NCBI RefSeq assembly: GCF_003019035.1
Contig: NZ_CP027447.1
Source of the DNA: Escherichia coli
Lineage (GTDB): Bacteria; Pseudomonadota; Gammaproteobacteria; Enterobacterales; Enterobacteriaceae
Strand: one strand, 5' to 3'
Length of the DNA: 64,000 bases
This document shows, piece after piece, positions 21,760 through 32,848 of the stretch. A program made the translations under genes and the position numbers. The notes under the pieces were generated by a model that was not told where the DNA came from, ran no database searches, and saw only the letters and a program-made list of their open reading frames with translations. Positions within the stretch are counted from its first letter, which is position 1. Every line of letters begins with the position of its first letter.

Positions 21760-22080
21760 AAATGTTCCTCTTCTTATTGTACTTAATTCCAAAGTAATTT
21801 TACGAAGAGAAATAAGTGGATGTAAGTGAAGTGAGTCACATAAAGAGATAGCAGATTTAGCTAAAAAAAGAGAAATAACAGTCCATAAACTGTTGACATT
21901 ACTTTCTGTTCTACTAAGTAATTTCTCGTTGATAAACAACTAATCTATTGATATTTAACAAATTATTTAATTTCACCGACAAAATACCGAATTGAGATCA
22001 TAAATAATCATGCAACGGGTTATGCAAATGCATAAATATGTGATGGCTGTCACTTATTTATTTCAAGAAATATATCACCT

Positions 22081-22113
22081 AAAAACAACGCGGGGCAGGG
22101 AATGGCTGCCCCA
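22081..22113 (-). terminator. Rho-independent terminator after ydeO
   Basis: GGGGCAG-GGAATGG-CTGCCCC hairpin with a T-run on the minus strand. Confidence 0.7.
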
Positions 22114-22160
22114 TTTAATTCTTACGCAGCGTGTGTGGTTGACTACTCGTTAGCAAATAA

Positions 22161-22922
22161 TCAAATAGCTAAAGCACTCATCGTGTTGTCCGTGTTCATA
22201 CCGGTGTGCCTTTGACAACGGTACTCCTTAGAAACTCTCTTTGGACTGTTGCCGAAATGTTTGCGGAACGCATAAATAAAATAAGATGTACTCGCATAAC
22301 CACATTGTTCGGCAATTTTATTGACTGAACCTTCTACGCGTATCAAATTTTTTGCGTGCTGCATTCTGGCATCTAAAAGAATCTGTGAGAATGTCGTTTG
22401 CTCTTGCTTTAGTTTTTTCTTCAACAGGCTTTCACTGATGTACAGGCAGTCACAAATATCTTTCAGCTTCCATGGGTGCGCCAGCTTCATGTTGACAATA
22501 TTTCTCACTTTCCCGGAAACGGATAGCACACCGTTAGTTAATAGTGTAATGAAACCTTTGCATGCGGCAAAAATAGACAGGCAAGAAAAAAGCAAAAGTT
22601 CTGAAAAATTATGATGATTGCGTTCTTCCGAGTTGAGATAAGCAATCATTTCATTAAGCAATCCAGTCGGTACATTTGAAGCACGTAAAAACTTCGCAGG
22701 AACAGGCACCGTCACTGTCTGGATGTTAGTGCATTGTAGATATTTTTTAATGGTATTTTCATTAAATCCGATTTCTTTAAAATGCCGCTCATAAGGTTCA
22801 AAATGTGTACGAACAGCGTTATCTACCATCAGGATCTCGCCGTCAGAGAAGGCGTAATCTTTATCTAAAATGTTAGCGTTGAAAGCATGATGAATAAATA
22901 TAACAGAACAAACGAGCGACAT
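22161..22922 (-). CDS. ydeO: AraC-family acid-resistance regulator
   Basis: 253-aa ORF with C-terminal AraC-type HTH; downstream of safA. Confidence 0.9.
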   Translation of the reverse strand: MSLVCSVIFIHHAFNANILDKDYAFSDGEILMVDNAVRTHFEPYERHFKEIGFNENTIKKYLQCTNIQTVTVPVPAKFLRASNVPTGLLNEMIAYLNSEERNHHNFSELLLFSCLSIFAACKGFITLLTNGVLSVSGKVRNIVNMKLAHPWKLKDICDCLYISESLLKKKLKQEQTTFSQILLDARMQHAKNLIRVEGSVNKIAEQCGYASTSYFIYAFRKHFGNSPKRVSKEYRCQRHTGMNTDNTMSALAI

Positions 22923-22995
22923 TTTATCTCCTTAAAACAATAAAGTTTTATCGATACCTTTTAAACATTTCACATTTATAATTTGCTGTTTATTT

Positions 22996-23193
22996 TCAGT
23001 CTTGCAAACTATTGATAATGAAATGTGTAAGATCTCTTGCAATGCGACCCATTTCTGAAATACTCAGCTGATCAATTGCCGAAAAAATGGCTATCAACGT
23101 AAGTGTCAGTAATAAGACAACCACAATTACAGACATGATTTCTTTATAGTTGTCTCTTTGCGTGATTTTGTTTTTCACTGTGGTCGCATGCAT
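22996..23193 (-). CDS. safA: EvgS/PhoQ two-component connector small membrane protein
   Basis: 65-aa ORF matching SafA, with a single transmembrane segment. Confidence 0.85.
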   Translation of the reverse strand: MHATTVKNKITQRDNYKEIMSVIVVVLLLTLTLIAIFSAIDQLSISEMGRIARDLTHFIINSLQD

Positions 23194-23304
23194 TTCAAAT
23201 ATGTTTATTTAGCGGATAACGTTAAAAATCGTAAATCAGTATGCTTAATATAACAGGCTGGATAAAAGAGGAAATAGGACTGGTGCTTCAGTACTGAGCG
23301 GAGT

Positions 23305-23320
23305 TTCTTACAGCTGTAGG
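23305..23320 (-). promoter_or_regulatory. Candidate EvgA box upstream of safA-ydeO
   Basis: TTCTTACAGCTGTAGG, an imperfect inverted repeat resembling the EvgA consensus; the same core recurs upstream of ydeP. Confidence 0.5.
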
Positions 23321-23440
23321 CAGAAGTTTATATCTTATAGTATGTAGTTTAATTTAATCCATATGAGCAAATTGCGTGATAATAGTCAATGAGGAATTCT
23401 TCTGCTGTGCGGATGACAGCAGAAGAAATGAGAAGAGGCA

Positions 23441-25720
23441 TTAATTTGATGGTTCTAATTCAACCGGAATACTTTTATAGCCAGGAATGCCACTTAATGG
23501 ATCGTGGTTATCAAGTGTTAGCATGTGATTCGATTCTGGAAAATAGGTCACCAGTGAGCGGTCAGCCATAGGGTAAATGACCACTTTTAATCTATCCATG
23601 CGGCGTGAGCTTCGCTTACCGTCTGGCGTAAGCGCAATAAGATTAACTCTTTCGCCGTTTTTTACACGGCAAATTTTAGCTTGTTTAGCACTCATAAAGA
23701 CCACATCTCGTTGACCGAATACCCCTCGATAGCGATCATCCATACCATAAATCGTCGTGTTGTACTGATCGTGACTGCGTACTGTCGCCATGACTAGCTT
23801 ACTGTTAAACGCTGAAGAGGGATCTTCTAACAGCCCTTTACTGGTAATGAAATTAGCCTTACCTGACGGCGTCATCCAGCGCCTTTCAGCAGCTGCATTT
23901 ATCAGGTGAAAACCACCGGGATGACGGATGCGCTGGTTATAGTCGGCGAACTCTGGCAGCACAGCTTCAATGTCATTGCGAATGCGATCATAATCTTCCA
24001 CCAGATACTCCCAGGCTACCACGCTCTGGGGTAGTGCTGCCTGCGCGATTCCCGCGACCACTGCACACTCTGATTTCAGCATTACACCGGCGGGTTTTAA
24101 CACACCACGCGAGGCATGAATCATCGACATTGAATCTTCAACGGTTACCGCCTGCGCACCGCTTTTTTGCATGTCAATCTCGCTACGTCCCAGAACCGGC
24201 AGAATATAGCTATGCCGTGCGGTCAGCAGATGAGAGCGGTTAAGCTTAGTGGCTACGTGTACCGCCAAATCTAATTGCGTTAACGGTACAGCGCTCGCTT
24301 CCCGATCTGGCATTGCCAGCGCAAAGTTGCCCCCCATGCAGATCAATGCTCGAGCTTGCCCCGTACATATTGCTTGCATGCTGGCAATTGCAGCATGTCC
24401 AGGTGCATGAGGTGGGGTGAAACCATAGCGCTCACCCAGGCGAGCCAGAAACTCTGCAGACGGTTTCTCGGTGATACCGACGGTTCGGTCGCCCTGTACA
24501 TTAGAGTGACCTCGTAGTGGGCAGATGCCCGCACCAGGCTTGCCAATGTTACCTTTCATCAACAGCAGATTGACCAGTTGCTGTACATTCTGGGTACCAT
24601 GTTCGTGCTGAGTGATCCCCATTCCGTAACAGATAATGGTGCGTTCGGCAGCGGCATATGCATCAGCCAGTTCGGCGATTTGAGTCTGACTTAGTCCAGA
24701 AATACGCTCGATATCTTTCCACTCGGAATTGAGAACGTCACGGCGTAGCTCGTCAAAGCCGACGGTATGCGTTTGAATAAATTCGTCATCCAGCAATGAG
24801 GGCCGACCTGCGGCGCTTGCAGCATCATCGCGCTCAATTAACAGGCGCATCATCCCCTTGAGCAACGCCATATCACCACCAATGCGCACGTTGTAGTAGG
24901 CACTGGCCAACTGAGTCTCAGAGTTCGTCAGCATTTCAAACGGGTTTTGCGGTGCGGTAAATCGCTCCAGGCCACGTTCCTGTAGAGGATTGATGGCGAT
25001 CATTTTCGCTCCCCGTTTCACTAAAGCGCGCAACGAAGTCAACATGCGAGGGTGGTTTGTACCAGGGTTATGCCCAATGCAAATGACTAAATCGCATTTC
25101 TCAAAGTCTTCCAGCAACACGGTCCCTTTACCTACACCGATACTCGCTGCCAAACCCACACTGGTCGGTTCATGGCACATGTTGGAGCAGTCGGGGAAGT
25201 TATTGCTCCCGTATTCACGGGCAAAAAGCTGATAAAGAAAGGCAGCTTCATTGGAAGTGCGGCCCGAAGTATAGAATTCAACCTGATTGGGATCACTATA
25301 GCTTTGAAGGCGTTCGCCAATTTCGTCGAAAGCTTGTTGCCAGCTTAATGGCTTGTAACAGTCGCTGACGGCATCATATTTCAAAGGCTGGGTGAGACGC
25401 CCCGCAGCCTCAAGCTCGTGATCTCCCCAGGTAAGTAATGATTGAACCGTATTCTCAGCAAAGAAAGAGGCATTTACCTGCTTATCCGTGACTTCCCAGG
25501 CGATTGCTTTTGCGCCGTTTTCACAAATGTCGAATGACGCACTGTGCTTAGGATCTGGCCATGCACAACCCGGACAGTCAAAGCCCTCTGGCTTATTCAT
25601 GTCAAACATGGCAATAACATCCTGGCGTATATCCATCTGCTTACGTACTGCATTCGCTACGGATTTAACAGCACCCCAACCACCGGCAGCCCCCTGGTAG
25701 GATTCAATTTTTTTCTTCAT
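23441..25720 (-). CDS. ydeP: Molybdopterin-family oxidoreductase (acid resistance)
   Basis: 759-aa ORF matching YdeP. Confidence 0.9.
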
Positions 25721-25962
25721 CTACTTATCCTGTGTGGAAATGAATTATTAGGATTTGTAATAGCGATGATGCACAGTATATACAAAGGGATTATCGTCAA
25801 TATGGATATATAAGAGTAGGGGACTACTCTCTTTCTATTTTAATCTATTATCGTTAAACAAAAGATTAAATACGATAAATTAAGCATCATCTCTCATAGT
25901 GTTTAAATTAACATATTTTTCAATATAAAAAATAAGACTCTGGCTTCAATTGTGCGCGGATT

Positions 25963-25979
25963 TTCTTACAGATGTAGGA
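25963..25979 (-). promoter_or_regulatory. Candidate EvgA box upstream of ydeP
   Basis: TTCTTACAGATGTAGGA, the same core as the safA site. Confidence 0.5.
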
Positions 25980-26052
25980 TAATAGCCTTCACAAAATAAT
26001 TATCCGCGCAATTTTCGTGAATGGAGCGCATAGACTAAGGTCAAAATCACAA

Positions 26053-26967
26053 TTATTCATAGATAAAAGTGACACCAATGACTGACTGGACGGTTCCGGC
26101 TGCAACCTTGTTTCCTGTTTGTCCATAGGTTGCGCTTAAACCCAGAGGTACTTTGCTTTTATTTACTGTCCCCAGGGAGACGTTTTCTCCCGTAGCCAGT
26201 ATTTTTCCATTACGCATCAGAGAGACACCCACTCCCGATGCTTTTGTTGCATCTGGTGCTGTGTTAGCAAACACTTGTCTGGCACTGTCAGTGGTAGCAC
26301 CCGAAAGATAAAATGAGAGCTTTTGTTCACTTGAGCAATATACGCCAAGGGGTATTTCTGCGCTTCCAGGAAAGTCAGGGAGATTCACGGTGACATTACG
26401 ACTATCAACGGTGCAGCCGCCTGTTGGCATAACAACACTGTTATTTGAAATAATATTCCACGTAAAATTACGCGGATTTCCGCTTCCTAACGTGGCAATT
26501 TTATACATATGAATACGGGCAATAACTTCCCCAGCTTTTATGACAACTCCACCGGCCGCACCGACTGGGGTAATATAGAGTTTTAACGGTAATGGCATCG
26601 GTGTCTTATCACCAATATCTAATACATTAGTATTTGTCGTCAACGGGAAGGGGTAGGTCACATTATTCCAGTACAGCGATCCTTTATATGACTGTAGGGA
26701 GCCTGCGAAAGCTGAGCCTTGTACCAGGTTTATATGATCAGTGTCGTACCAGCCGCCGTAATCATTCCAGCAACTTATATGCTGAGACAAGTCTACAACC
26801 AGATTCTGGCCCGGTTGTATTACAGGGTCGAGATTAACATAAACAGAGGTTGTACCTGCTCCAATACTTGACCCGCCATCGACATTACAACTGAAGGCAA
26901 AAACTTTGCCTGCCATTAATAGAAGATAAATACTGAACAGAACCTTTATACTGAATGTTTTACCCAT
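26053..26967 (-). CDS. ydeQ: F9 (Fml-type) fimbrial tip adhesin, FimH-like
   Basis: 304 aa, alignable along its length with FimH as I recall it (…VYVNL.PV…GQNLVVDLS……VTFIY). Confidence 0.85.
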
Positions 26968-27025
26968 GATATATCCTAAGGTTAAAAAATTGATTTAAAT
27001 AGAGGCAAAAAAAATCAAATTGATG

Positions 27026-31498: not shown

Positions 31499-31851
31499 TC
31501 TCCATGTGTTAAGAGGATAAGCGGGAAAACCGTTACATCAGACAATCAGTAAATGTTGCTAATACATTGGCGACTCGCCGGGTTTCCAGACTTAATGCGT
31601 TTGTAATAAATGTTGGTTCTCTTTTAATAGGAAAACCTTGCTACAAAGTAAATATTTTAAATAACAGTAAGTTTAACTACTGTTGTTTATTGATCGTTTA
31701 GATATTATGTGATTTTTTCATACCGCTCCAAAACACAAACTATTCCTCATTAATAATGAGATGAACATTGGTGAATTGCTCGGGTGTGCGTAGCCATGCC
31801 ACACACACCCTGTTTCAATTTCAGATGACGTATAGCCACCTTAAGATTGAA

Positions 31852-32415
31852 TTATAGATATTGAACTTTGAAGGTCGCATCTGCGTTTGCAGTACCAGCT
31901 ACTGACTGCCCGAGAGCAATATATCGAGCCTGGAACGGCAATATATTCGTGCCATCAATCAAGTCAGTTTTAGCGCTAAAAGTGGCACCATCAAGTATTA
32001 ATACCTCCCCCGTACGGTCCAAAATTTGAATACCAACATTTTGGGCAGAGCCTGCCGCTGAACTCTGCAGCGCTAACGTATCGTCATTACTGGTGACAGT
32101 AGTACCCAGGAATGCAACAGCTGCATTACTGGAAACATTGGTATCACAATCATTCAACTTGATATTGAAGCCAACGGCAGAGCTGAGGTCACCCGCTTTA
32201 GCCAGGCGAGAAGAACGGACCTGACCCAGCTCAACCGTTTGGTTCATTGATTCTGAATCAATCGCACAAGCGGCATTTACCACTTCACCTTTAAAATGAA
32301 TAACACCGCCATTAACAGTGGTCGTTACTGATTCATCACCCTCGGCTGCGCTTACCGCAGCAGACGACATCGCCAACACAGAAACGACAATCATACCGAC
32401 ATGTTTGAGTTTCAT
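31852..32415 (-). CDS. F9 major fimbrial subunit (FimA-like)
   Basis: Start taken at [23 protein letters not shown] (signal peptide); C-terminus …[10 protein letters not shown] is pilin-like. Confidence 0.8.
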
Positions 32416-32848
32416 AATTCTCCAAAATTTATATTTAAGTAGCTGAATAAAGAAAGTTAACAATCAAGTCATTCTGTTATTGCTTATAAAACAAGAATCA
32501 TTCTTGATGGGATATTGCCCTGAGAATATAGTTTCCGGGGTTATTACATTTCACGAAGAACGATAATATCTTTAAATTACAAGGACACCTAATCACAACA
32601 AGTTTATTGCAGCACTTGTTGTAGAGAGTATTTGCAAAGACATTTTATGTCGCTAAATAACATGACAATTTCATTATGCATGTTATTTATAAACCGTGAC
32701 TAAACAGAATATTATTGCGAACAAGGGAAGTGTCAGGAAAGGTCAAGAGCGACCAATGGCTTATATGGCTATAAATCATTAGCTATAGTTAATGTTTGCC
32801 TGGTGTAACTAACACGGAATTGCTCTAAACAGATAAGTGCAGGGTTTA

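Follow-up and report, generated by a model that had tools for sequence, protein, structure and literature searches.

Two transcription units of the acid-resistance locus ydeP-safA-ydeO in Escherichia coli begin behind similar inverted repeats, and a hairpin lies between them. We asked whether the repeats are operator sites of the response regulator EvgA, why they resemble each other beyond the repeat itself, and what the hairpin may do. The window, by which we mean the whole stretch of DNA analysed, comprises 64,000 nucleotides. The open reading frame list and the RefSeq annotation of E. coli SCU-301 agreed on four genes around the repeats:

22161-22922, minus strand: ydeO, AraC-family activator of gadE
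22996-23193, minus strand: safA, 65-aa connector that activates PhoQ
23441-25720, minus strand: ydeP, 759 aa, putative acid-resistance oxidoreductase
26053-26967, minus strand: ydeQ

The 4-kb region 22100-26100 was 100% identical to SCU-301, and at least 80% of it was present in 5306 of the 5426 complete E. coli genomes. K-12 MG1655 has the same gene layout as the window. In some E. coli strains, the ydeO-ydeP stretch contains an inserted IS1203 element (IS3 family).

We searched the 64-kb window for the 16-nt core common to the two repeats, TTCTTACAGNTGTAGG. Exactly two copies were found, both given here as plus-strand sequence: 23305-23320 and 25963-25978. None occurred in 100 dinucleotide-preserving shuffles. 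A preliminary description of this DNA had placed the first copy correctly and had run the second one base too far, to 25979. When extended to 18 bp, both copies had one mismatch to TTCYTACANNTGTARGAA, that is, to the inverted-repeat consensus TTCYTACA-N2-TGTARGAA, which we take to be the EvgA box consensus (Masuda & Church 2003; Itou et al. 2009) of the EvgS/EvgA regulon in E. coli. The exact bases protected by EvgA may differ from this pattern. At one mismatch or fewer, the 18-bp pattern was again found exactly twice in the window and never in the shuffles. The two probable boxes are as follows:

25963-25980, minus strand: EvgA box of the ydeP promoter, TTCTTACAGATGTAGGAT on the plus strand and ATCCTACATCTGTAAGAA in gene sense, one mismatch to TTCYTACANNTGTARGAA, 243 nt upstream of the ydeP ATG
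23305-23322, minus strand: EvgA box of the safA-ydeO promoter, TTCTTACAGCTGTAGGCA on the plus strand and TGCCTACAGCTGTAAGAA in gene sense, one mismatch to the consensus, between ydeP and safA and 112 nt upstream of the safA ATG

The region is AT-rich, which is the sole point in favour of chance palindromes in AT-rich intergenic DNA. This view was refuted by the absence of a match in all 100 shuffles, by the conservation of the repeats across lineages and by the presence of the motif at other EvgA operons, both described below, and its probability is practically negligible.

As an independent test, the K-12 regions of other classical EvgA-activated operons were fetched and scanned with the 18-bp pattern. 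Upstream matches were detected at frc/yfdW (no mismatch), yegR and safA (one mismatch each), and emrK and ydeP (two each), and yfdX had two upstream copies with one and three mismatches. Upstream of gadE, no match with fewer than four mismatches was found in the K-12 scan, though gadE is also reported to be EvgA-activated. Inverted repeats bound by EvgA precede yfdX and yfdWUVE, which EvgA thereby induces (PMC3720670), and all directly regulated genes have an EvgA site (PMC4283999). Direct regulation of ydeP by EvgA (PMC8174306, PMC7174508) and direct binding of EvgA to the safA-ydeO promoter (PMC9496106) have been described. The boxes in the window are located upstream of the genes whose EvgA/acid induction is stated in these last three papers.

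We conclude, with a probability of about 90%, that EvgA uses the two repeats as operator sites (EvgA boxes) in the promoters of ydeP and safA-ydeO. The preliminary description had called them EvgA-box-like, and this held up with the single mismatch of each, the motif at other EvgA targets and the published binding. The motif, its statistics, its presence at other EvgA operons, its conservation and the common spacing were observed in this analysis; direct EvgA binding and acid induction at ydeP and safA were taken from the literature. The 18-bp pattern and its position upstream of ydeP and safA (b1500)-ydeO agree with the known EvgA box, which is also found at emrK, yfdX, frc and yegR, and there is no essential difference here. 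Both boxes are already known. The EvgS/EvgA > YdeO > GadE cascade of acid resistance starts at these sites, as does the connection from SafA to PhoQ/PhoP, and recognising them provides the correct regulatory annotation of the locus; their presence brings nothing new. The small additions of this study are the paralogous promoters (~93 bp), the regulon-wide spacing between the box and the −10 element, and a strongly conserved hairpin 3' of ydeP with an inverted loop in a divergent lineage.

The acid network has many regulators, and safA is reported to be PhoP-repressed (bioRxiv 10.64898/2026.05.06.723403). A different regulator, of the LuxR/NarL type or from the acid network (GadE, RcsB, YdeO or PhoP), might bind the repeats in place of EvgA. 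However, the promoters with the motif in the K-12 scan were exactly the direct EvgA regulon, and ydeP is directly controlled by EvgA without control by GadE, GadW, GadX or RpoS (PMC7174508). A PhoP-box scan made for the reported safA repression yielded 199 matches against 174 expected, and the matches near safA were at chance level. Binding by another regulator in place of EvgA is therefore extremely unlikely.

Elsewhere in the window, a perfect PhoP-box-like direct repeat, TGTTTAGTCACGGTTTA, was found on the minus strand at 32690-32706, ~275 nt upstream of a gene start (~32415; ORF 31852-32463). The downstream gene encodes a fimA-like major fimbrial subunit. A copy of the repeat with one mismatch is located at 31684-31700.

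We scanned a genome collection with YdeP and obtained 50 loci from 50 genomes, 387 kb in all. At two mismatches or fewer, the pattern was confined to E. coli-type loci, where it occurred at both places. The closest YdeP homologues found outside E. coli were those of Edwardsiella (84-85% amino acid identity) and Yersinia rohdei (67%) (loci L009-L012). In the same 387 kb, no EvgA box was found near these ydeP homologues or more distant ones, which suggests that ydeP has a horizontal history and was recruited later into the EvgA regulon in Escherichia. Another locus, L007, is a ydeP-safA locus on a contig of a 'Candidatus Nanosynbacter' MAG (JARKOR010000108.1); its YdeP is 100% identical to that of the window, and the locus almost certainly reflects contamination of the bin by E. 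coli.

In K-12, the safA box was identical to that of the window. The K-12 ydeP box, AGCCTACACCTGTAAGAA, is at the homologous place and differed from that of the window at two non-consensus positions, one in the spacer and one an outer base of the distal half-site. We also compared L008, which represents a divergent Escherichia lineage and has a YdeP that is 96% identical. Its boxes are ATCCTACGCCTGTAAGAA at ydeP and CGCCTACAGTTGTAAGAA at safA. Upstream of each box, the L008 sequence has diverged, including a 12-bp indel, whereas the boxes were kept, and so was most of the ~70-90 nt following each box, including AGTCYTATTT and TG-N-TAWWTT. The promoter-proximal half-site TGTAAGAA was invariant at both promoters in all Escherichia copies examined.

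A perfect 9-bp G+C-rich inverted repeat (TGCGCGGAT / ATCCGCGCA) was noted at 25953-25961 and 26002-26010, placed asymmetrically around the ydeP box. It has one change in L008, despite a 12-bp insertion between its arms, and may be due to chance.

The likeness of the ydeP and safA promoters spans ~93 bp (25888-25980 and 23230-23322) and so reaches beyond the 16-bp core. The segments downstream of the boxes are as follows:

25888-25962, minus strand: ydeP promoter module downstream of the box, apparently paralogous to 23230-23304
23230-23304, minus strand: safA promoter module downstream of the box, apparently paralogous to the ydeP module 25888-25962

Without gaps, 45 of the 75 bases were identical between the two modules, compared with 19.8 ± 3.6 in shuffles, and none of 20,000 shuffles reached 45. 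The safA module was the best non-self match of the ydeP module anywhere in the window. The identity of 45 of 75 downstream bases in ungapped register suggests that a whole promoter module was duplicated between ydeP and safA.

The same likeness past the box would be expected if the repeats were alike merely as duplicates of one ancestral promoter segment, with the inverted repeat as a passenger. Against this, the 18-bp pattern is also present at emrK, frc, yfdX and yegR, in otherwise unrelated surroundings, the box was kept in L008 while the adjacent upstream DNA diverged, and direct EvgA binding is reported in the literature. A passenger repeat is thus very unlikely.

Four elements were common to the two promoters. 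Their offsets are given in nt past the promoter-proximal end of the box:

+1 to +10: A-TCCGC-CA
+14 to +20: (T/C)TGAAGC
+24 to +33: AGTCYTATTT
+50 to +58: TGTTA(A/T)(T/A)TT, a putative TG-extended −10

The last of these corresponds to the following positions:

25905-25913, minus strand: putative extended −10 of the ydeP promoter, TGTTAATTT, with TG-N-TAATTT kept in L008
23247-23255, minus strand: putative extended −10 of the safA promoter, TGTTATATT, at offset +50 to +58 as in ydeP, and TGCTATATT in L008

The 5' leader of ydeP used in K-12 starts 178 nt upstream of the start codon (PMC11210196). In K-12, this start has an offset of +66 relative to the box and follows the TAATTT hexamer by 7 nt. 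The ydeP leader in the window has a 1-nt deletion relative to K-12. If the leader start is read as the transcriptional start site, transcription of ydeP in the window would begin at ~25897 with a 177-nt leader. Because the leader start was taken as the start site, the ydeP box is estimated to lie at about −83 to −66, centred near −74.5. From its register with ydeP, the safA start site was predicted at ~23239-23242.

A promoter predicted by a scan for ydeP, TTGAAG-16-TATATT, was rejected, as its −10 is lost in L008 and it does not fit the 178-nt leader. Within the 177-nt ydeP leader, a 7-bp stem-loop, AGAGTAG-TCCC-CTACTCT on the gene strand, was seen at 25813-25830 and is partly kept in L008. 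Upstream of the safA box, the sequence TTAATTTAATCCATATGAG at 23349-23367 on the plus strand, opposite to the genes, matched the −10/start site segment of ydeP, TTAATTTAAACACTATGAG, at 16 of 19 positions; the yegR promoter has TTTAAACACTAGAGAG. TTAATTTAATCCATATGAG could be a remnant or a divergent promoter; chance is also possible.

The spacing was shared across the regulon. A −10-like hexamer was found at +52 to +59 from the box in six of six EvgA promoters, and at least five of the six had T, C, A, T and T at +26, +27, +30, +31 and +32, respectively (TC..ATT, ~−40 to −34). The corresponding TCYTATT-like element (+26 to +32) is at 25931-25937 in ydeP and 23273-23279 in safA, and most EvgA-activated promoters have one at this offset. 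In its place, frc and yfdX have a common sequence, CTCTCTGATT, at +23. The TC..ATT element resembles the TCYTA half-site core and is located 42 bp from the distal half-site.

BvgA of Bordetella, with the half-site TTTCCTA, is the closest well-studied homologue of EvgA. The BvgA-activated fha and ptx promoters share with the EvgA promoters a TTCCTA-like half-site core and a primary inverted repeat far upstream of the −35 region. In EvgA promoters, the further half-site-like TCYTA, 42 bp downstream of the distal half-site and near −40, is also BvgA-like. The two systems differ in that the middle region from the box to the −35 fits the consensus only weakly; cooperative binding of extra EvgA dimers there would be hypothetical. 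A second complete EvgA box in this middle region was rejected as unconvincing: counted by eye, 8-9 of the 16 specified positions matched at ydeP and safA, and 5 of 16 at emrK. By analogy with BvgA, it may be speculated that TCYTATT is a secondary EvgA contact. We propose only tentatively, and with low confidence, that EvgA promoters form a fixed-geometry module consisting of a box at about −74.5, a TCYTATT that follows the distal half-site at exactly 42 bp (four helical turns), and a TG-extended −10 that would do without a −35 contact. Secondary EvgA contacts of the BvgA kind would then extend to the core promoter, and the ydeP and safA promoters would be duplicated copies of the module.

It is established in the literature that EvgS is activated by mild acid, ydeP and safA-ydeO by phosphorylated EvgA, PhoQ by SafA and gadE by YdeO. 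At the two promoters studied here, mild acid would render the sensor kinase EvgS active, and a dimer of phosphorylated EvgA (NarL/FixJ-type) would bind the 18-bp inverted repeat, whose centre lies ~74.5 bp before each start site. EvgA would then switch on promoters in which the −35 is poor and a TG-extended −10 sits at a constant spacing (+53 to +58) from the box. Such activation would be class I-like, from about −74.5 upstream, with a dispensable −35 contact. The products would be an acid-resistance oxidoreductase from ydeP, and a PhoQ-activating connector and an activator of gadE from safA-ydeO.

The remaining element of the locus is the hairpin:

23397-23427, minus strand: hairpin with a perfect 12-bp stem and a 7-nt loop, arms TTCTTCTGCTGT (23397-23408) and ACAGCAGAAGAA (23416-23427)

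A perfect 12-bp hairpin just past the ydeP stop codon had been claimed earlier, and we confirmed that its arms are 100% complementary. On the gene strand, it starts 13 nt after the ydeP TAA (23443-23441). As RNA, the hairpin was calculated at ~−17.5 kcal/mol; an 81-nt segment had an MFE of −17.6, with z = −4.3 relative to shuffles. An Rfam scan of 22000-27000 identified no RNA family, and its one OxyS match, inside ydeQ, was at chance level (E = 0.24).

As a stable stem-loop straight after a stop codon, the hairpin resembles Rho-independent terminators. It differs from them in that 5 of its 12 pairs are G-C, its weak U-tract is not conserved in L008, and the terminator consensus scan did not flag 23397-23427. 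The 3' tail in the window, UUCCUCAUU, is weakly U-rich with 5 U in 9 nt, and that of L008, ACUCGAAUU, has 3 U in 9 nt. A classical intrinsic terminator is doubtful because of the weak U-tail and the result of the terminator scan.

The stem was invariant in six E. coli strains, some of which differ at 4 positions in the 13 nt from stop codon to stem, and the loop orientation in all six is that of the window. In L008 (5294-5324), the stem was invariant too, with both flanks rewritten. The L008 loop, ACGGATG, is the reverse complement of CATCCGC in the window except for one base, and the L008 loop is therefore inverted between the palindrome arms. Loop inversion within E. coli was considered and rejected: about half of the genomes were 90-95% identical at the hairpin, and this was caused by substitutions in the 13 nt between stop codon and stem.

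Both arms are perfectly conserved though the L008 tail is not U-rich, and the L008 loop is inverted, as happens through recombination between palindrome arms. These points would fit a hairpin that acts as DNA, either as a protein-binding palindrome or as a cruciform-prone site upstream of the safA promoter, and not as an RNA 3' end. However, the hairpin is ~170 bp upstream of the predicted safA start site and straight after a stop codon, where hairpins of transcript ends are usually found; it contained no recognisable motif of a known regulator, and no Rfam family matched. A role at the DNA level is therefore unlikely.

We give roughly even odds to the hairpin being the 3'-end stem-loop of the ydeP transcript, where it could protect the RNA or terminate transcription leakily. 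In either role, as a protective stem-loop or as a weak intrinsic terminator, it would set ydeP apart from the safA promoter and allow some read-through. One paper calls ydeP-safA-ydeO an operon, and a leaky or protective 3'-end stem-loop is consistent with this description while safA has an EvgA promoter of its own.
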